From an uncultured Bacilli bacterium (GTDB taxonomy: Bacteria > Bacillota_I > Bacilli_A > RF39 > UBA660), in contig CANQHF010000005.1 in NCBI GenBank assembly GCA_947623685.1, positions 1-60,433 on the forward strand: a stretch of 60,433 nt of DNA. Direction: 5' to 3'. The notes under the pieces are model-generated. The model made no database searches, had not been told where the DNA came from, and was given only the letters and a program-made list of their open reading frames with translations. Of this stretch, positions 2,274-17,967 are shown one piece after another (the stretch's first letter is position 1; each line of letters starts with the position of its first letter). The position numbers and the translations under genes were made by a program.

Positions 2274-2305
2274 AAAAAGGTGAAGATAAATCATCACCTT
2301 TTTAT
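2274..2305. terminator. bidirectional rho-independent terminator
   Basis: AAAGGTGA..TCACCTTT stem flanked by an A-run and a T-run, immediately after the sortase stop. Confidence 0.6.
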
Positions 2306-2313
2306 AATTTTTC

Positions 2314-2370
2314 TTATTTTGTATTAATAGCAGCTTGTATCACAATCTCATTTGGAATAATAGAATTGAT
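2314..2370 (-). pseudogene. degenerate remnant resembling the 3' coding end of ppdK (copy 2)
   Basis: Minus-strand translation INSIIPNEIVIQAAINTK* resembles the ppdK C-terminus ...[18 protein letters not shown] and the remnant at 6354..6443; shares ATTAATAGCnGCTTGTA at DNA level with that remnant. Confidence 0.5.
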
Positions 2371-2411: not shown

Positions 2412-3017
2412 TTATCCTGAAATATAGAATAAAATTGATTTTGTTAAATCAGAACAATCACTAAAATTCTTTATTTTAAATTTGTTTAAAAGTGATAATA
2501 AAACAGTTTCATTTTCAATATTTATTTTATCAATATTTTGCCAAATAGGTAAATATTCTATTGTCATTTGAACATCATAACCAAAAAAACTAGATAAATT
2601 ACAATCTTTATATAACCACGTTTCTTCATAAAAACCTGAATCAAAGTTATAAAATTCATCGTTAATTAAAACCCCGTTGCAACTTCTACCATAATTTTCG
2701 TAATTATAAACGATTTTAAATTTATAATTATCAGACAGAATATTTTCAAAATTAGAAGAACTTGCTAAAGTGAAAAAAGAAGGTTTTAGCTGGGTTACTT
2801 TCTTAAATTCACTTAACGTTTCATAAATTTCTTTCTTCGAGATATTCTTCAAAAAAAAGATATCCCCACCATCTGTTTTTTTATGCTCATATAAATTCAA
2901 ACTAATATATTCGGATAACTTTTGGTGTAACTTTTTCAATTTTGATTTATCAAAATTTTCATTTTTACCATTGATGCAAATGTAAGCCGGTATTCCACCT
3001 GCCAAATATCTCCCCAT
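2412..3017 (-). CDS. hypothetical protein (201 aa), no recognisable motif
   Basis: Long ORF with AGGAG-type RBS (aaaggagtg) upstream of the ATG. Confidence 0.5.
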   Translation of the reverse strand: MGRYLAGGIPAYICINGKNENFDKSKLKKLHQKLSEYISLNLYEHKKTDGGDIFFLKNISKKEIYETLSEFKKVTQLKPSFFTLASSSNFENILSDNYKFKIVYNYENYGRSCNGVLINDEFYNFDSGFYEETWLYKDCNLSSFFGYDVQMTIEYLPIWQNIDKINIENETVLLSLLNKFKIKNFSDCSDLTKSILFYISG

Positions 3018-3666
3018 AAAAAATCACACTCCTTTACTTATAATTGGGAATAAAAATAACCTAAAACTTCAAAAGTTTTTCAAATATTACTCAAATTACA
3101 TATAGCATAACTAAAATATTATGTCAATAAACTTAAAACCCAATAATTAATAACTTTTAGATTTTCATTATTGTATTATCTATAGGCTTTTTATTCCTTT
3201 TTTAATAGCTAGTAATCAGTCTTTTCTTTAAATTTCAAAGTTAATCTTAGTTTATTAGATTATTTAAATATGATAAATATAAACTCTATATCAAATAATA
3301 TTTAATTTTTTAGTATATTATTATCTCATAAAATTTATCATAACAAATGAGATTTATATTATTTTTAAAATATGTTTTTAATTGATATTTTAAGCATTAA
3401 AAACCAACTATTATTATATTTTCAAATGAAAAAATAATAATTAGTTGGCCGCGTTTCTTATTACCCAGTATTTTAAAATTAAATATATTTTATTTTCAAA
3501 ATAAATTATTAATATATAAATTATAAGTATATAAATCATAAATATATGATAACTTGTAAACTGATTTAGATTTATCAAAAAGCCTAAATAGGATAACAAG
3601 AAATACTTGGGCTAAAAACTTTATTTTTTATTTAATCTACAAAATAACTTAGTAGAACCCCAAAAA

Positions 3667-6103: not shown

Positions 6104-6134
6104 AAAAAACCTAATTTCTTAAAAAGAAATCAGG
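6104..6134 (-). terminator. rho-independent terminator (T1) following hairpin H1
   Basis: Minus strand CCTGATTTCT-ttttaa-GAAATTAGG followed by TTTTTT; homologous to T3 at 6494..6530. Confidence 0.6.
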
Positions 6135-6140
6135 CAATTG

Positions 6141-6167
6141 ACCTAGGGCTTCTAAAGTTTCCTAGGC
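6141..6167 (-). repeat. conserved stem-loop motif copy H1
   Basis: Minus strand GCCTAGG-AAACTTTAGAAGC-CCTAGGT: 7-bp stem including one G.U pair, 13-nt conserved loop. Confidence 0.7.
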
Positions 6168-6180
6168 ACTACTTTATAAA

Positions 6181-6209
6181 GTGTATCATAATCTTGCATA
6201 TAAAGTCAA
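6181..6209 (-). promoter_or_regulatory. promoter P1 (TTGACT-N18-TGaTACACT), weaker copy of P2
   Basis: Minus strand TTGACT(6209..6204) ...TATGATACACT; same layout as P2. Confidence 0.4.
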
Positions 6210-6353
6210 TACATTTTAAAAAATTATTACTTTCGGCCATAATAACCTTTTATTTTTTAAAATTTATTATGCACATTATTATCGCAAGCTGTAATAAAAA
6301 AACAATCTTTTTGCAAACAAAAAAAGCTAAGTAAATCTTAGCCTTTAATTTTA

Positions 6354-6443
6354 TTATTTTCCTTGCTTTTCATTAATAGCTGCTTGTAACACAGCCAAGT
6401 TCGGAATGCAATTGATATTTAAGCATAAATCTTCTTTGAAGAC
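6354..6443 (-). pseudogene. degenerate remnant resembling the 3' coding end of ppdK (copy 1)
   Basis: Minus-strand translation VFKEDLCLNINCIPNLAVLQAAINEKQGK* versus ppdK ...[47 protein letters not shown] is identical to the real ppdK 3' end; followed by its own terminator GCTAAG-atttac-CTTAGC-T7 (6325..6350). Confidence 0.55.
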
Positions 6444-6493: not shown

Positions 6494-6530
6494 AAAAATA
6501 CCTAATCTCTTAAAAGAAATTAGGTAGATT
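6494..6530 (-). terminator. rho-independent terminator (T3) after Abi_2 gene 1 and hairpin H3
   Basis: Minus strand CCTAATTTCT-tttaag-AGATTAGG then TATTTTT. Confidence 0.6.
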
Positions 6531-6531
6531 G

Positions 6532-6558
6532 ACTTAAGGCTTCGTAAGTTTCTTAAAT
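6532..6558 (-). repeat. conserved stem-loop motif copy H3
   Basis: Minus strand ATTTAAG-AAACTTACGAAGC-CTTAAGT: 7-bp stem with one U.G pair. Confidence 0.7.
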
Positions 6559-6594
6559 ACTAATCAATAATATTATATGAATTATCTGTATTAT

Positions 6595-7464
6595 TTATAC
6601 ATTAGGATATCCCATGATTTTCAAAATTATTCTAGCATCTATTGATTTAATAGACTCATTTAACTTATCAAACTCTTTATTAATCAAATTTATTAAGTCA
6701 TTGTAATCTTGTTCATTTAAGAATTTTTCCATACTTCTAATTAACATATATAAATTAGTTGAATTGTTATTTACTTTATATGTGTTATCTATTAAGCTAA
6801 AAGTCATAAAAAATTTACTATGAAAAGAAAATAATCTATCAGAATGAGCACAAATATTTCTTGCTAATGTCATATTAATAAGAATTTGCTTTAATAATTT
6901 TGGTGATACATTAAATTTTTTAGCTATTTCATTTCTATCTGATTGTTTTAATAATCCGTACCATCTACTTATTTGCCCAAAAGACAATATTTTAATTGCA
7001 ACAAATGGAGGTATAAAACCATAAGTTTGATCATAATGCGTAATAGCTGGATGCTTACCTTTATTTTTATCAATTTCTGTATTGATAGAATCAATTACAT
7101 CATTTATATCATCTTCATTTGCTAATTCATCAAAATTTGTTTTGTTAAGATAATCTTGAATTCCATAATTCTTAGCGATGATATTTCCCATAACACCTCT
7201 TATTTTTAATTCGAATTCTAAAGCATACTTTAAAAATATAACTCTTATATTTTTATCAAAATCATATAAAGAATATATTTCATCAAAATGAACATTTTCA
7301 AAATATGTATTATCATCTTTTTTAAATACATATTTATATGTGTTAATAACAGAATAATATGAATAATTATCTATAATATTTAAAGCTATATTCTCATCAT
7401 CAATTATTACATTTTTATTTTTTAAATGTTCTAATAATTCTTCATTATGTTTATATTCTTTCAT
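6595..7464 (-). CDS. Abi_2 (AbiD/AbiF-like) abortive-infection family protein with HEPN-type Rx4H motif
   Basis: LEHLKNKNVII..., NYSYYSVINTYKY, YDFDKNIR and ARNICAH (R-x4-H) motifs. I chose the ATG at 7464 (GGGGGAA SD 6 nt upstream) over the ORF-track start at 7542, which would read through hairpin H2. Confidence 0.8.
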   Translation of the reverse strand: MKEYKHNEELLEHLKNKNVIIDDENIALNIIDNYSYYSVINTYKYVFKKDDNTYFENVHFDEIYSLYDFDKNIRVIFLKYALEFELKIRGVMGNIIAKNYGIQDYLNKTNFDELANEDDINDVIDSINTEIDKNKGKHPAITHYDQTYGFIPPFVAIKILSFGQISRWYGLLKQSDRNEIAKKFNVSPKLLKQILINMTLARNICAHSDRLFSFHSKFFMTFSLIDNTYKVNNNSTNLYMLIRSMEKFLNEQDYNDLINLINKEFDKLNESIKSIDARIILKIMGYPNV

Positions 7465-7491
7465 ATAATATTCCCCCATAAATAAAAATTG

Positions 7492-7518
7492 ACTCAGGGC
7501 TTCATAAGTTTCCTGAGT
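7492..7518 (-). repeat. conserved stem-loop motif copy H2, in the 5' UTR of Abi_2 gene 1
   Basis: Minus strand ACTCAGG-AAACTTATGAAGC-CCTGAGT: perfect 7-bp stem. Confidence 0.7.
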
Positions 7519-7532
7519 ACCAATCAATATAG

Positions 7533-7562
7533 AATATATCATATGTTTACATATAAAGTCAA
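7533..7562 (-). promoter_or_regulatory. promoter P2 for Abi_2 gene 1 (TTGACT-N18 with extended -10 TGaTATATT)
   Basis: Minus strand TTGACT(7562..7557) ttatatgtaaacata TGA TATATT(7538..7533). Confidence 0.55.
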
Positions 7563-7703
7563 TATATTTTTTATAGTTTTAAAAAATTATTACTTTCAAC
7601 CGTAATAACTTTTTAATTTTTAAAATTTATTACACGCATTATTATCACAAGCTATAATAAAAAACAATCTTTTCGCAAACAAAAAAGACTAAGAATTTAT
7701 TGT

Positions 7704-7736
7704 AGAAAAATAGGGCTCTATCCTAAAATAGACCCC
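7704..7736 (-). terminator. rho-independent terminator ending the PHP-ATPase/101-aa/Abi_2 operon
   Basis: Minus strand GGGTCTAT-tttag-GATAGAGCCC followed by TATTTTT. Confidence 0.6.
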
Positions 7737-7803
7737 TTGCAAAAATGATTTAACATTTTTTCCTTGCATAGATAATATATCACAAAATTATATCTATGTC
7801 AAA

Positions 7804-8802
7804 CTACTCATCCAAAATTTCTTTATAATTTTTTTCAATTATTTTATCAAAATATTGATAAATGGATTTAAGTAGTTCATTATTAGTATAGTATTTTCTA
7901 TTAAGAATTATTCTTCCATAAAATAATTTACTAATATCATGGTTAACATTTCTTTTTATTCCATCGCTACTTACAATAACATTAAATAAATATAAAGTAT
8001 AAGTTATTTGTCTTATTCTTGAATTTTTTAGTTTATTATCTCGATTTTCTTTTCCTATACCACAATCTTTTAGGTAGTTAATAATTAAAATATCTGGTCT
8101 ATGGGTATTATCTTTTTTATCAAGGTCGGATAATACACAAGAATTATGAGCTACTGCATTTCTAAGTTTATTTACTTCTCTTAAAATAAATACATATTTT
8201 TTATCTTCTAAATTATAATGAGCAGTAAAAAATTCAAAAAAGTTTATCAATTCTCCAAAAGTTATTATTTCTAAAAACTCCCATATTGGAATATTTTCAA
8301 GTTTTTTATCTTTATCTAAATCATACTTTGAAAATATTTTTTTATAATATTCATTAGATACTTTCTTCATAATACTATCATGCACTCTTTTAGGAAACTG
8401 TTCATCATTATAATCTTTATCAAGATATAAATTTACAATATTGTATCCGTCTTCTTCATCTATTTCCTCAATACTATTTAATATTCTAATCTTTAAATAA
8501 TGTTCAATATCAATTATCATTTTAAATAGCACAATTCTAGTTCTATAATCTATAATTGATAAGTCTTTCAAGTAAGCAAAATCTAAATCAATATATTTAC
8601 CTGTTGATTCCCCACATTGATATTTAATAAAATTATTTTTATATGATGTTACATTAAAATAATTATTATTTTCTCTAAGATATTGTTCAGCATCTTGTTC
8701 TTTGCATTCTTCAAATTTAATATTTTTTTGTTTTAAATATGGAACCATTTCAGAAATTTTCATCATGGGTCTTAAAGTATTTGTATTAATATTTTCAATC
8801 AT
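7804..8802 (-). CDS. Abi_2 (AbiD/AbiF-like) abortive-infection family protein with HEPN-type Rx4H motif
   Basis: AEQYLRENNNYFNVTSYKNNF, IDYRTRIVLFKMIIDIEHYLK and LRNAVAH (R-x4-H); RBS gaaggtga. Confidence 0.8.
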   Translation of the reverse strand: MIENINTNTLRPMMKISEMVPYLKQKNIKFEECKEQDAEQYLRENNNYFNVTSYKNNFIKYQCGESTGKYIDLDFAYLKDLSIIDYRTRIVLFKMIIDIEHYLKIRILNSIEEIDEEDGYNIVNLYLDKDYNDEQFPKRVHDSIMKKVSNEYYKKIFSKYDLDKDKKLENIPIWEFLEIITFGELINFFEFFTAHYNLEDKKYVFILREVNKLRNAVAHNSCVLSDLDKKDNTHRPDILIINYLKDCGIGKENRDNKLKNSRIRQITYTLYLFNVIVSSDGIKRNVNHDISKLFYGRIILNRKYYTNNELLKSIYQYFDKIIEKNYKEILDE

Positions 8803-8867: not shown

Positions 8868-9173
8868 TTATTCAGATGTTTTGTCATTTTCATTAGCTAA
8901 TTGTATTTTCATTGACTCATCTATTGATGAAAATAACTCACTTACCTTTTCATATATTGGATAACATATTTTGTCTTCTTTCTTATCATCAGCAGTAGTA
9001 CAATCAACAATCTCAAATGAATCGTTTATTGAATATTCATTGAAAAATTGTGTATAAAGTTCTAAACCATTAAGCATTTTTTCTTTCTCATCAATTACAA
9101 TTTTATTATCTTTATCTACTTCTTTAAAAATATATTTATTGTCTTTTTTTATAAAATTAATTATTCTTTTCAT
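8868..9173 (-). CDS. hypothetical 101-aa acidic protein, translationally coupled to the upstream PHP-ATPase gene
   Basis: Start overlaps the last 17 nt of 9157..11532; 65-nt gap to the Abi_2 gene; no recognisable motif. Confidence 0.55.
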   Translation of the reverse strand: MKRIINFIKKDNKYIFKEVDKDNKIVIDEKEKMLNGLELYTQFFNEYSINDSFEIVDCTTADDKKEDKICYPIYEKVSELFSSIDESMKIQLANENDKTSE

Positions 9174-11532
9174 ATTTTTTATACCTTTCTTTAAGTGAAT
9201 CTATTCCACCCTCTATATTATCAGCAATAATTTTTAGCATATCTATTTTATCATCTTTATATTCCAAAGCACCACTTTCTATACTAATTTTTTCAGTTTC
9301 TTCATCTTTTTTCATAAATATAACATTATCAACATCTAAATTAATAATAAATTGTGGATTGTGTGTTATTAGTATTACTTGCCTATGATCAGAAATTTTT
9401 TTAAAATCTTTTAAAAGTCTCTTTTTAATTGATGGCTGAGAAACATCATCTTCAGGTTGATCAATTATATATAATCCTGTATTTTTAATATCATTAGATA
9501 GTAATTCAAAATATATTTGAGCATTTGCACCAGATGATAGTTCTTTTGTTACATCCGAATCTTTAGCATTATTTATACAATTTCTTATTTTTAAATCTTT
9601 ATTTAATTTTTCAATTAATTTTAATTTATAATAATTCAAAATATCATCAGGCATATTCTCTCCAGTTTTAATATTTTCTTTAAACTCATCAGGGTCAACT
9701 AAAGATAAATTGATTATTCTTTTTTTATAATTAGCTTGTAATTGACTAACTAACAATTCAAATATATAGTTAGAGTCAATTTTAGTAACATCTGATTTAC
9801 ATATAAATCTATATTCCCCATTACTATTTATTTCTGGTTTTAGTTTAATTTCATCAAAATTTAAATTAAACTTTGTTTCATTTTCATTAAGTTTAATTAA
9901 ATTACATATTATTTTAGATAATTGAATGAACTTTAAATTATATGATTCTCTTTGTTTTTGTTCTTCAGTTTTTGTATTTTCCAACTCTGTATTAAAAACT
10001 GTTATTTTATTATTTATTATTGTTACTTTTTTCTCTTCTAATTTGATTTTTTCTACTAAATCTTGATATTTATCTTTTAATTTTTTCAAAAAGCATGAAT
10101 ATTGTTTGATTTTATTTAATTCTTTTTCATCTAACAACTTATTTTTTGATAACTCATCATTAAGTGTAATTAATTGAGAAATGTTTAAAACAAGATTTTT
10201 ATAGTTAGCTTCATTGGCCTTTAAGTCAATATCAATTGGAAGAACCTGCAACGATATTGAAATTTCTTCGTGCAATTCAAATGAAATATTTCCTAATTTA
10301 GCTTTTTCTGATTTTATTTTTTCCTTATTTTTTATAAAATTAATGAATTCATCTATCTTTTTTTCTACTTTTTGTTTTTCTAAAAAATAATTAGGTTCAA
10401 TAGGATAATATTCATTTATAAAATCCTTAGATTTTGTCTTATTATTTGTAAATATATCTCTTATACTTCCTTGTTTATCAAAATGCCTTATATTTTCTGG
10501 AGAAATTTTAGTAATAACATCAATTTTATTTTCTTTTAAGTAGTTATCATAAGCAGTTATCAATTTTTTATCAGAAGATATTTCTCTATAATCTGTCATT
10601 TTGTGCAAAAGTAAAGATTTTCCAATAGAATTATCTCCTATTATTGCATTAATTCCTCTTGACAATTCTATTTCATTTTTGCATCCATCTATAGTAATTT
10701 CTATTTTATCAATTGGAGAATTAGTAGAAAAAAAACTACTAACGCCAATTTTTATTCTACGTGAATCAGTAATTGCCATCATTACCCCTCTAAATGTTGG
10801 AAGACATTTAAAATAACTAAATTCAAAATCTCCATCATTTGTTTTTTCAGGATAATCATTCCAATTATGACAGTCACTTCCAGTAATAAATTGCATATTT
10901 TTCAATCTAGGTTTTTGATTTTCTATATAAGATTTATTAAATATTTCATTTCTTTTGTTTTTGAATTCATAAGCTTCAAAATAATCAATAAAAACAAAAT
11001 CTTCTAACGATTTAATTCCAATACTATTTACATCATGTTTTCTAACTTTAGAACTACTGAGACTCTCTTTTTGATGAGCAATCAAAATAACATCAAGGCC
11101 AATTTTTCTCAATATACTAATAAATTTTTCTTCTGAAAAAGCATTTTCTAAATCATACAATGGTTTGTTTATTTCCTTATTAAAAATATCAGATTGAATT
11201 GATTGTAAATTAGAATTACTATTATCATTAAATAATGCTATGATATGCAAAACTTCACTCTCAATTTTCACACTAAATTCAATACCAGGCAATACTTTTT
11301 TTATACAATTATCAATTAATTCTTGTTCTTTTAATTTTATATATAGATTATAATCAAAATTATCATGATCAGTAATTGAAACCATATTTACTTCGTTTTC
11401 AACTAATTTAGAAATTAAAATTGGAAGATTTTCTATTGTACCATCACTAACAATTTTTTTATCTTTATGATTAGAAGAAATCGAATGAATATGAAAATCA
11501 ACTTTTAAGGGTTTTTTTACAATTTTTTCCAT
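9157..11532 (-). CDS. PHP-domain phosphoesterase fused to an ABC/SMC-like (OLD/AAA_15-type) ATPase with a long coiled-coil insertion
   Basis: PHP motifs DFHIHS, ITDHDN, GIEFS, LHIIAL, IAHQ, GSDCH in the first roughly 230 aa; Walker A GDNSIGKS; about 300 aa K/E/L-rich coiled-coil; signature-like SSGANAQ; Walker B LYIIDQPEDD; H-loop ILITHNP. Confidence 0.8.
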   Translation of the reverse strand: MEKIVKKPLKVDFHIHSISSNHKDKKIVSDGTIENLPILISKLVENEVNMVSITDHDNFDYNLYIKLKEQELIDNCIKKVLPGIEFSVKIESEVLHIIALFNDNSNSNLQSIQSDIFNKEINKPLYDLENAFSEEKFISILRKIGLDVILIAHQKESLSSSKVRKHDVNSIGIKSLEDFVFIDYFEAYEFKNKRNEIFNKSYIENQKPRLKNMQFITGSDCHNWNDYPEKTNDGDFEFSYFKCLPTFRGVMMAITDSRRIKIGVSSFFSTNSPIDKIEITIDGCKNEIELSRGINAIIGDNSIGKSLLLHKMTDYREISSDKKLITAYDNYLKENKIDVITKISPENIRHFDKQGSIRDIFTNNKTKSKDFINEYYPIEPNYFLEKQKVEKKIDEFINFIKNKEKIKSEKAKLGNISFELHEEISISLQVLPIDIDLKANEANYKNLVLNISQLITLNDELSKNKLLDEKELNKIKQYSCFLKKLKDKYQDLVEKIKLEEKKVTIINNKITVFNTELENTKTEEQKQRESYNLKFIQLSKIICNLIKLNENETKFNLNFDEIKLKPEINSNGEYRFICKSDVTKIDSNYIFELLVSQLQANYKKRIINLSLVDPDEFKENIKTGENMPDDILNYYKLKLIEKLNKDLKIRNCINNAKDSDVTKELSSGANAQIYFELLSNDIKNTGLYIIDQPEDDVSQPSIKKRLLKDFKKISDHRQVILITHNPQFIINLDVDNVIFMKKDEETEKISIESGALEYKDDKIDMLKIIADNIEGGIDSLKERYKKYEKNN

Positions 11533-17070: not shown

Positions 17071-17967
17071 TCATTTTTTATTTAAAGGATGACATTTTAA
17101 GTAAACAGCTCTTAATCTTTCGTTAGATACGTGAGTATAAATCTGGGTTGATTCTAAAGATTCATGTCCTAACAATTCTTGAACGGTTCTTATATCACAT
17201 CCTTCATTTAACATATGAGTTGCAAAAGAATGCCTTAACATATGTGGTGATATATGTTTTTTTAAGGCTGCTTTTTTTACTATATCATCAATTATTTTTT
17301 CAACTCCGCGAGTTGTTATTTTATTACCTTTTTCATTAATAATTAAATATTGACAAGACGTATGGTGCTTTTGCAAGATTCTTTTTCTGCCATCATTTAA
17401 AAACAAATTTATAGCATCCAAGCAGTAATCTCCAAAAGGATCTATTCTTTGTTTACTTCCCTTACCCATTACCTTTATTTCCTTTTTATAAAAATCAATG
17501 TCATTTAATTTTATATTAACAAGCTCACTTACCCTTATTCCGGTTGCGTATAAAACTTCTAATATTAATTTATCCCTTTGTCCTAAAGGCGTATTTAAAT
17601 TAGGTATATTAAAAATTACTTCTAATTCTTCTACTCCCAAATATTTAGGTAATCTTTTTTCCTTTTTAGGTGTAGATACATACTTAAAAGGATTAGTGTT
17701 TATAAGATCATTATTAAATAAAAACTTATAAAAACTTCTTAAAGATGATAGCTTTCTTGCCACTGAATTTCTTGATAAATTTCTATTATAAAGCTCCATT
17801 AAATAACCCTTTATAAAATCATAATCCACTTTTAAATAATTCATATTTTCTTTTTTAAGATAATCTTTAAACTCATTTATATCAATTTTATAATTTTTAG
17901 ATGTGTATAAAGAATAATTTTTCTCGATTTTTAAATAATCCAAAAACTCATTTATTTTATTTTCCAT
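17071..17967 (-). CDS. tyrosine recombinase, XerC/XerD family
   Basis: ATGIRVSEL, HMLRHSFATHML, LLGHESLESTQIYTHV catalytic motifs; about 298 aa. Confidence 0.88.
   Translation of the reverse strand: MENKINEFLDYLKIEKNYSLYTSKNYKIDINEFKDYLKKENMNYLKVDYDFIKGYLMELYNRNLSRNSVARKLSSLRSFYKFLFNNDLINTNPFKYVSTPKKEKRLPKYLGVEELEVIFNIPNLNTPLGQRDKLILEVLYATGIRVSELVNIKLNDIDFYKKEIKVMGKGSKQRIDPFGDYCLDAINLFLNDGRKRILQKHHTSCQYLIINEKGNKITTRGVEKIIDDIVKKAALKKHISPHMLRHSFATHMLNEGCDIRTVQELLGHESLESTQIYTHVSNERLRAVYLKCHPLNKK

Follow-up and report, generated by a model that had tools for sequence, protein, structure and literature searches.

Proteins of the AbiF/AbiD-F group act as type III-like toxins that a hairpin RNA encoded in cis keeps inactive, and AbiF itself also processes this RNA (PMC12373285, PMC12737573, PMC13064643). 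The RNA known from these systems is described as the Rfam family RF03085, and as RCd22 and AbiFr. In Clostridioides difficile, RCd22 carries two RF03085 motifs upstream of abiF and neutralises the toxin in cis as well as in trans through direct binding, which is lost with mutations that break the stem and kept with compensatory ones (PMC12373285). The AbiF dimer binds two hairpins, or a single RNA with two motifs (PMC12373285, PMC12737573, PMC13064643), and the cryo-electron microscopy structure of PbAbiF has one noncoding RNA (ncRNA) per monomer, with a single-stranded bulge occupying the active site (PMC12737573, PMC13064643). AbiF, which processes its own ncRNA, has moreover been proposed as the ancestor of Cas13 (PMC12737573). 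Here we describe a short hairpin that brackets an abiF-like gene on the minus strand of contig CANQHF010000005.1 from an uncultured Bacilli bacterium, of which we analysed a stretch of 60,433 nt (hereafter the window). These hairpins are probably the RNA partner of a type III-like toxin-antitoxin defence module, whose toxic RNase would be the Abi_2/HEPN protein, bound by the hairpin. In function the hairpin would belong with the AbiF ncRNA antitoxins, yet it stands outside the one described RNA family and has a different layout.

A covarying hairpin on both sides of an abiF-like gene

An earlier note on this DNA had described three minus-strand copies of an element with a conserved 13-nt loop, enclosed by three different 7-bp stems that remain complementary, and its description is borne out by the sequence. 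The exact loop AAACTTNNGAAGC occurs three times in the window, always on the minus strand (6148-6160, 6539-6551 and 7499-7511), and the stems GCCTAGG/CCTAGGT (H1), ACTCAGG/CCTGAGT (H2) and ATTTAAG/CTTAAGT (H3) are all complementary. As the note had also stated, stem positions 3, 4 and 6 covary across the three copies, and the two non-Watson-Crick pairs are G.U solely when the minus strand is folded. RNAfold gives H1, H2 and H3 a common shape, in which the 7-bp stem is followed by an AAA/C internal loop and then by a 3-bp CUU/AAG helix capped with an NNG triloop, and a covariance model built from relatives (R1) scores them at 55-70 bits (E 1e-14 to 1e-18). A covariance-model search of the window and relatives, which the note had recommended, brought up a fourth and degenerate copy in the window (H0) as well as 162 matches in 80 related loci.

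The layout agrees equally well with what had been noted, H2 lying between a predicted promoter (P2) and the Shine-Dalgarno sequence (SD) of the gene, and H3 being located ~25 nt past the stop codon, with the terminator T3 coming next (Table 1). Transcription from P2 is predicted to start at ~7525-7528, at the base of H2, and the U-run after H2 may be a leaky terminator or an attenuator. A P1-H1-T1 unit without a gene lies ~350 nt beyond the P2-H2-abiF-H3-T3 unit; H1, with a predicted promoter and a terminator of its own, is situated outside the interval 6494-7562 to which the note was confined. The note had further considered that the element could be merely part of a longer duplication subject to drift. 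In part this is so, because 6136-6331 duplicates 7487-7693 at 81-91% identity and the hairpin element is partly inside this longer duplication. Within its ~200 nt, three stem pairs are altered, each on both sides, while the loop is unaltered. As the ~200 nt upstream of H1 duplicate the region upstream of H2, H1 can be regarded as a paralogue of the 5' end of the unit.

The product of the bracketed gene matches the Pfam family Abi_2 (PF07751) at E 3.4e-43 and the PADLOC model AbiD at 1.2e-52, and a phmmer comparison with the PbAbiF structure (PDB 8VZ6) gives E 1.5e-14. Within its HEPN motif, residues R202, N203, A206 and H207 are invariant in an alignment with 15 homologues (alignment A1). Two of the features expected of an AbiF toxin with a cis-encoded ncRNA, namely an Abi_2/HEPN protein with the motif R-phi-xxx-H and an adjacent structured RNA on the same strand, are seen at this locus. 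A tblastn search with the protein against GenBank phages and PLSDB plasmids returned only relatives below 33% identity, which were of no use for the hairpin motif.

Much more informative were 80 loci encoding relatives of the abiF-like protein (51-98% identity), which come from gut metagenome-assembled genomes (MAGs) labelled Bacilli, Tenericutes, Mycoplasma and Clostridia. The hairpin is found on both sides of the gene in 76 of them, ~20-30 nt upstream of the start codon and ~45 nt past the stop; among the remaining four, three are cut by contig ends and one has no 3' copy. The spacing from loop to loop at these loci is 951-970 nt. The R1 search of the 80 loci gave matches on the gene strand exclusively, all of them above 52 bits, with none falling between 52 bits and the reporting threshold. 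Exact matches to the loop numbered 157 in these loci, and all seven stem pairs were formed in 156 of them and six in the other one, so that requiring a paired stem introduces no selection bias.

Covariation was studied in an alignment of 107 distinct 45-nt copies, where 95.6% of the cells are paired and only one unpaired cell falls in the 7-bp stem. Compensatory changes, whose absence from further copies the note had named as evidence against its proposal, are plentiful: six of the seven lower-stem pairs are altered on both sides (for example, UA in 62 copies vs CG in 43, or GC in 66 vs AU in 41). The observed covariation score was reached by none of 500 shuffles, and sliding the 3' partner by 1-3 columns makes the pairing fall to 19-50%. 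G.U pairs are frequent, with 25 cases at the basal pair and 17 at the next one, which fits an RNA of the gene strand. A four-pair outer helix of the AUUG/CAAU type is weaker (10-23% of cells unpaired), and the CUU/AAG helix is invariant, so covariation neither supports nor contradicts its pairing. Comparing the two stems within each locus gave 43 distinct pairs, and in 42 of these the stems are different from each other at 2-9 of 14 positions, both staying fully paired. The gene-strand hairpin is under strong constraint in structure and in loop sequence, and it is fixed at both ends of this AbiF-family gene.

The surroundings of the two copies are conserved as well. A T-run directly follows each 5' copy and precedes the SD, whereas 3' copies never have a T-run and are followed by other sequence and a separate terminator. 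The 83 distinct 5' copies have the promoter consensus TTGA.A / TG.TA.A.T, whose -10 box ends just before the 45-nt element, ~13 nt upstream of the 7-bp stem. In the 71 distinct 3' copies, the consensus ATAtAATA (at >=80%) occupies the position relative to the hairpin that the -10 box has in the 5' copies, and the -35 is weak. Given this conserved TATAAT at -10 distance, which is known as a consensus only, the 3' hairpin may also be transcribed alone, and the 3' hairpin with its terminator may constitute an independent small-RNA gene.

Table 1. Positions of the hairpins, signals and genes of the locus within the window
Feature	Position	Strand	Description
abiF-like gene	6595..7464	-	289 aa, Abi_2/HEPN, motif R202-N-I-C-A-H207; Pfam, PADLOC and PDB matches
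H2, 5' hairpin	7486..7530	-	Outer helix AUUG/CAAU, GU bulge, stem ACUCAGG/CCUGAGU, AAA/C internal loop, CUU/AAG helix, AUG triloop; R1 69.6 bits, E 1.3e-18
H3, 3' hairpin	6526..6570	-	Stem AUUUAAG/CUUAAGU, same loop, triloop ACG; R1 62.4 bits, E 2.4e-16
H1, stand-alone hairpin	6135..6179	-	No gene; stem GCCUAGG/CCUAGGU; R1 55.3 bits
H0, degenerate fourth copy	3053..3097	-	Loop AAACUUUUGAAGU; stem AUUUGAA/UUUAGGU with three G.U pairs; R1 36.9 bits, E 2e-08
P2, predicted promoter	7533..7562	-	TTGACT, 18-nt spacer, TGnTATATT; 10/12 consensus score plus TG extension
U-run and SD	7472..7488	-	U-run 7488-7478, then SD GGGGGA 7477-7472, ahead of ATG at 7464
TATAAT box	6572..6577	-	2 nt ahead of H3; candidate -10 of a separate promoter for the 3' hairpin
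T3, intrinsic terminator	6499..6526	-	12-bp stem and U-run; terminator scan and fold
P1, predicted promoter	6180..6209	-	TTGACT, 18-nt spacer, TGnTACACT; 9/12 with TG; inside the ~200-nt duplicate of the H2-upstream region
T1, intrinsic terminator	6109..6135	-	After H1; fold and terminator scan
Second, divergent Abi_2/HEPN gene	7804..8802	-	332 aa; Pfam Abi_2 3.9e-23, PADLOC AbiD 6.5e-18; directly upstream of the abiF unit
Small-RNA gene of a different kind (predicted)	7705..7802	-	Promoter, hairpin, terminator; directly downstream of the second Abi_2 gene
791-aa protein	9157-11532	-	N-terminal PHP-like motif, C-terminal ATPase region; upstream of the second Abi_2 gene

The hairpin compared with described RNA partners

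The described candidate family for this hairpin, RF03085 (gathering threshold 37 bits), had to be rejected. RF03085 gave no match at the hairpins at E<=1 (in 8 kb), at E<=10 (in 1.75 kb) or at the gathering score (in the window and 15 loci), and the positive controls did score, with 37.6 bits for the RCd22 motif of phiC2 and 55.7-58.5 bits for loci of the PbAbiF family. Scanning Rfam at three levels of stringency brought no described family to light at the hairpins, the weak matches (FHbp thermometer, snoRNAs) being due to chance. The main text of the 2017 Weinberg paper does not name abiF. The RF03085 consensus reads CCCGCC-A-AGC-(11 nt)-GCU-CAAAUGU-GCGGG, where a 5' bulge of a single nucleotide and the 3' bulge CAAAU separate the 6-bp stem from the AGC/GCU helix. 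In the present hairpin, stem7-AAA-CUU-(NNG)-AAG-C-stem7, the 7-bp stem and the CUU/AAG helix with its triloop are separated by the 3-nt bulge AAA on the 5' side and the 1-nt bulge C on the 3' side. Both RNAs share the succession of stem, asymmetric internal loop, 3-bp helix and cap, but the large bulge has changed sides (3' strand in RF03085, 5' strand in the present hairpin), the apical loop has 11 nt in one and 3 nt in the other, and the sequences are unrelated.

One of the nearest relatives in organisation is PbAbiF-AbiFr of Prevotellaceae (PDB 8VZ6), which likewise joins an Abi_2/HEPN toxin to a short hairpin on the gene strand with an asymmetric internal loop and a 3-bp upper helix. The order around the 5' copy, promoter, hairpin, U-run and ATG, is that of the PbAbiF loci, where UCGUUUUAUUUUU comes directly after the hairpin, in parallel to the U-run after H2. 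The PbAbiF loci differ in having one upstream copy and no 3' copy, instead of one copy on each side of the gene. With RCd22-AbiFCd from the C. difficile phages phi027 and phiC2, the present loci share the presence of two motifs per gene, matching a homodimer with two RNA sites, one promoter for both RNA and gene (predicted in our case) and the need for the structure of the stem rather than its sequence (PMC12373285). By contrast, the motifs of RCd22 occur in tandem upstream of the gene, in a small RNA (sRNA) of ~100 nt that ends at a strong terminator before it.

In the classical type III toxin-antitoxin systems (ToxIN/AbiQ, CptIN and TenpIN), tandem antitoxin repeats of 34-36 nt are located upstream and cut into units by the toxin. 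An RNase toxin neutralised by a cis-encoded structured RNA and a role in abortive infection, both of which we infer for the present locus, would be common ground, although the toxin folds are unrelated, with a HEPN domain here and not a ToxN-like one. The repeat search detected no tandem antitoxin array, but only dispersed copies 391 and 960 nt apart. Nor did it find a type VI CRISPR array: the spacing of 951-970 nt is that of the gene itself, and the protein is a single-HEPN one of 289 aa. Two further resemblances of the loop can be mentioned in this regard. The loop AAACUUWHGAAGC of H1-H3 has AAA..YGAAG in common with the loop of Cas13a repeats from the literature, CCCC-AAAAAYGAA-GGGG, a short resemblance through which both loops may be related. 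Mimicry of an anticodon stem-loop (C-UUNNGAA-G) was dropped as an idea because no continuing 5-bp stem supports it.

Copies away from intact abiF genes and the genomic neighbourhood

How closely the hairpin tracks AbiF was examined in the opposite direction, by scanning metagenome contigs for the hairpin itself with a tightened pattern and confirming the hits with R1. Out of 102 hairpins obtained in this way, 61 adjoin an intact Abi_2 ORF (open reading frame), 33 of them on its 5' side and 28 on its 3' side; 23 are too near a contig end to be judged, and 18 have room on both sides and no intact AbiF. The association of hairpin and AbiF is strong but not exclusive. Among the metagenome copies in which no Abi_2 ORF was detected, some of them near contig ends, several precede AbiF-like N-terminal coding sequence of the MKEYK type, truncated in some cases, and others are stand-alone units of promoter, hairpin and T-run that recur across contigs (L310, L332, L338, L377 and others). 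The loci of the relatives offer similar examples. A promoter-hairpin-terminator unit like that of H1 occurs at L017:2599, with similar units in several metagenome contigs; at L004:4531 and L060:3000 the promoter, the hairpin, the SD and the first codons (MKEYK or MKEKK) are kept and the sequence then breaks off; and L009:2044 keeps MQEYKI followed by a stop, after which comes an unrelated ORF of 114 aa. Many of the exceptions have the appearance of cassettes that decayed or were replaced, and some that of true orphan genes for small RNAs.

The window holds a case of its own in H0, whose loop ends in U in place of C. It lies behind a promoter with TTGACA (3127-3122), in the leader of a non-Abi ORF of 201 aa (3017..2412, minus strand) for which we found no significant Pfam or PADLOC family and no HEPN motif. 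H0 could represent either an abiF cassette that was replaced or a different gene placed under the hairpin. A related observation was made in one metagenome contig, where two promoter-hairpin-U-run units 2.2 kb apart (L372:333-377 and 2569-2613) each stand before the same non-Abi sequence, which suggests that the hairpin leader was reused in front of another gene family.

Hairpins of this kind are also carried by phages. The first, loose DNA pattern gave mostly chance matches (it was real in 7 of 80 loci), so the viral search relied on a tighter IUPAC pattern. Ten IMG/VR contigs have one R1 hairpin each, at 41-66 bits (27-66 bits when their relatives are included), and the neighbouring genes are annotated by PHROGs as phage genes. 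In one set of phages (group a), the major tail protein gene (phrog_2645) is separated from the gene that follows by a hairpin ACCCCGG-loop-CCGGGGT with a T-run; of 80 related phages, this hairpin is limited to the six closest ones (L209-L213 and L288), and the others (L214-L287) have an ordinary GC-rich terminator there. In a second set (group b), with contigs of ~60-120 kb, the hairpin has an exonuclease gene (phrog_284) directly downstream and lies at the 3' end of a tRNA cluster, starting at the end of tRNA-Thr in L294 and ~48 nt past tRNA-Met in L289, L290, L292 and L299. The hairpin is present in 10 of 11 relatives of this group, with five different and fully complementary stems, and L297 has the tRNAs without the hairpin. 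The contig L120 also belongs among these large phages with a hairpin at the 3' end of the tRNA cluster (L289-L299, L120). Other single phage copies occur after an endolysin gene (L115) or elsewhere between genes.

A profile that detects both Abi_2 genes of the window revealed no Abi_2 ORF in 154 kb of phage loci, and at least 20 phage contigs carry the RNA motif without the toxin, as a phage antitoxin mimic should do. As a hypothesis, the phage hairpins may be anti-defence decoys against AbiF, an idea that agrees with their exact loop and compensatory stems, with the lack of the toxin and with a distribution that is sporadic. A pseudo-antitoxin RNA encoded by a phage, the pseudo-ToxI of PhiTE, was reportedly described by Blower and colleagues in 2012. 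The cos hairpin of phage sk1 was reported as an AbiF inhibitor that does not resemble the AbiF ncRNA (PMC13064643). In the present case, single hairpins are found in phages that lack the toxin gene; their loop is invariant, their stems are compensatory and, in contrast to the sk1 hairpin, these copies are near-exact.

Turning back to the window, the unit has a second and divergent Abi_2 gene as its upstream neighbour, for which there were no relatives among the 80 loci and no hairpin upstream. The predicted small-RNA gene directly downstream of it comprises a promoter (TTGACA, 17-nt spacer, TGnTATATT), a hairpin AAAAAAUG/CAUUUUU between GCAAGG/GYAAGG repeats, and a terminator. It is conserved in five homologous loci, with a compensatory change in L427, whereas the regions upstream of the second Abi_2 gene are not conserved, and its RNA may represent a third class of partner for AbiD/F proteins. 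Farther upstream, PADLOC matches the 791-aa protein weakly to its models PDC-M49A, Ppl, GajA and PtuA. An IS4-type transposase lies just downstream of H1, and the genes farther along are ordinary ones of a chromosome, for a pyruvate phosphate dikinase, an XerC/D-like recombinase (17071-17967) and a DUF285 protein. The locus thus resembles a small island of defence genes within the chromosome of an AT-rich member of the Bacillota.

Two repeated features were also seen around the hairpin units. Just upstream of both P2 (7575-7625, minus strand) and P1 (6212-6262, minus strand), within the duplicated segment, lies an AT-rich hairpin that resembles a terminator (UUAUUAY-GGNNGAAA-GUAAUAA, between A- and U-runs) and may be a bidirectional insulator. 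Moreover, C-terminal coding remnants ending in ..IPNxxVxQAAINxK-stop, each with a terminator, are found downstream of the abiF unit (~6346-6430, minus strand) and of the unit of H0 and the 201-aa ORF (~2300-2360, minus strand); successive insertions may have left them behind as duplicated target-gene ends.

A proposed role for the hairpin in AbiF defence

Altogether, the hairpin is most likely an AbiF-binding antitoxin or autoregulatory RNA. Transcription from P2 would begin at the base of H2, and a fraction of the transcripts would stop at the U-run after H2 to give a free hairpin RNA of ~45-55 nt. Read-through would produce an abiF mRNA carrying both H2 and H3 and ending with H3 and T3. Transcription of H3 would possibly start from its own -10 box as well, and H1, as a stand-alone promoter-hairpin-terminator gene, would supply extra hairpin RNA in trans. 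An AbiF homodimer would bind two of these hairpins by way of the unvarying nucleotides of their internal and apical loop (AAA, CUU-NNG-AAG, C), blocking the HEPN site, and we propose that the stem can vary freely as long as pairing is kept because it is a scaffold only. H2 is ~15 nt away from the SD, and so AbiF binding probably also represses translation. Phage infection would cut the supply of hairpin, and the AbiF set free would degrade RNA and abort the infection. For the transcription boundaries, the binding, the neutralisation and the trigger, this scheme draws on the precedent of the family and on the anatomy of the locus.

Several observations weigh against such a role. RF03085 does not match the RNA, and homology to the characterised antitoxins is therefore not established. 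Unlike RCd22, H2 is not separated from the gene by a strong terminator, so it is not obvious that the antitoxin would be made in excess of the toxin. In addition, hairpins precede non-Abi ORFs (H0 and L009:2044) and occur in phages without AbiF, which means that the RNA may have a partner or a role beyond AbiF. The earlier note had proposed a structured element of the sense strand tied to the transcript of the HEPN protein, and this part of its proposal is upheld by the covariation (n=107), the strand bias and the fixed positions; for the generic cis-regulatory or processing site that it had in mind, the precedent of the family gives a more specific reading.

The closest alternative is that of purely cis-acting mRNA elements, with H2 as a 5' stabiliser or attenuator and H3 as a 3' stabiliser, where AbiF autoregulation would be possible and an antitoxin role absent. 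It would suit the location of H2 at the predicted 5' end, ahead of the U-run and the SD, that of H3 before a terminator, and the fact that the hairpin of group a phages takes the place of the ordinary GC-rich terminator of their relatives. We nevertheless hold it unlikely, as neither a stabiliser nor a terminator needs a 13-nt loop that is invariant across 51-98% protein identity and in unrelated phages, and units without a downstream gene (H1, L017:2599 and those of the L310 type) have nothing to regulate in cis. In a further alternative, the hairpin would be the binding or processing site of another host or phage factor, such as an RNase or an RNA chaperone, and be used independently by AbiF loci, phages and other genes. 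Copies before non-Abi ORFs (H0, L009), phage copies that directly abut tRNA genes and the at least 20 phage contigs devoid of Abi_2 ORFs in 154 kb point in this direction. However, most of the assessable copies in the hairpin-first sample flank Abi_2 genes or their remnants, several non-Abi cases still begin with the codons of AbiF (MKEYK/MQEYK) and so resemble abiF cassettes that decayed or were replaced, and the precedent in the family is one of direct binding between AbiF and RNA, which makes an independent factor more doubtful still.

The remaining explanations are very improbable. In attC sites, which are cassette-borne recombination sites, a GTTRRRY core goes with R''/L''-L'/R' boxes; each cassette has a single site, which IntI recombines as bottom-strand DNA, and no promoter stands in front. 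The present hairpins resemble them in being conserved in structure, variable in sequence and tied to single-gene units, and the direct repeats around a single gene, the 'empty' units (H1, L017:2599), the replaced gene at L009 and the repeated C-terminal remnants downstream would all suit recombination sites, of the attC kind or another, or else terminal repeats bounding a mobile gene cassette. But the attC-like site suggested in the earlier note finds no support, none of the above attC features being seen: no GTTRRRY core is present and no integron integrase was found, the sole recombinase seen being XerC/D-like and ~10 kb away; each gene has two sites, with a -10 box before each hairpin, placed to transcribe it; G.U pairs confined to the gene strand and a strand bias of 162/162 indicate selection on RNA; and the differences between the two stems of a locus disfavour exchange between copies. 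We give equally little credit to a primitive repeat-'spacer'-repeat unit, processed by AbiF into guide-like RNAs and thus nearer to the CRISPR RNA of Cas13 than to an antitoxin. AbiF as the proposed Cas13 ancestor that processes its own ncRNA (PMC12737573), and the stretch AAA..YGAAG common to both loops, would speak for it, but that resemblance is short, and the 'spacer' would be an 870-nt gene at a fixed distance, with neither arrays nor short variable spacers.

Taking the hairpin as an AbiF partner RNA, one may go a step further and imagine a second, structurally distinct class of AbiF antitoxin RNA that brackets its toxin gene, exists also as orphan sRNA genes and has been captured by phages as an anti-AbiF decoy, a possibility that we put forward tentatively and with more doubt than conviction. 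If it were true, bracketing would mean that one mRNA carries both hairpins needed by the toxin dimer, which could tie the translation of the toxin to its own neutralisation. The phage decoy would be expressed from the end of a tRNA cluster in phages of ~100 kb, and would replace the terminator after the major tail protein gene in another lineage.

To our knowledge, pairs of AbiF and ncRNA were characterised only in 2025 and have so far been defined by one upstream RNA motif (RF03085). The second motif described here, absent from Rfam, is widespread in AT-rich gut Bacillota (MAGs labelled Bacilli, Tenericutes and Clostridia). On the practical side, the covariance model can annotate these RNAs and flag their orphan and phage copies, and a compact hairpin of ~33 nt with clear covariation is well suited to binding and structural work. 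The phage-borne copies offer a testable case of RNA mimicry against a HEPN defence, and the different geometry of the internal loop, together with the layout flanking the gene, would widen what an AbiF antitoxin can look like.

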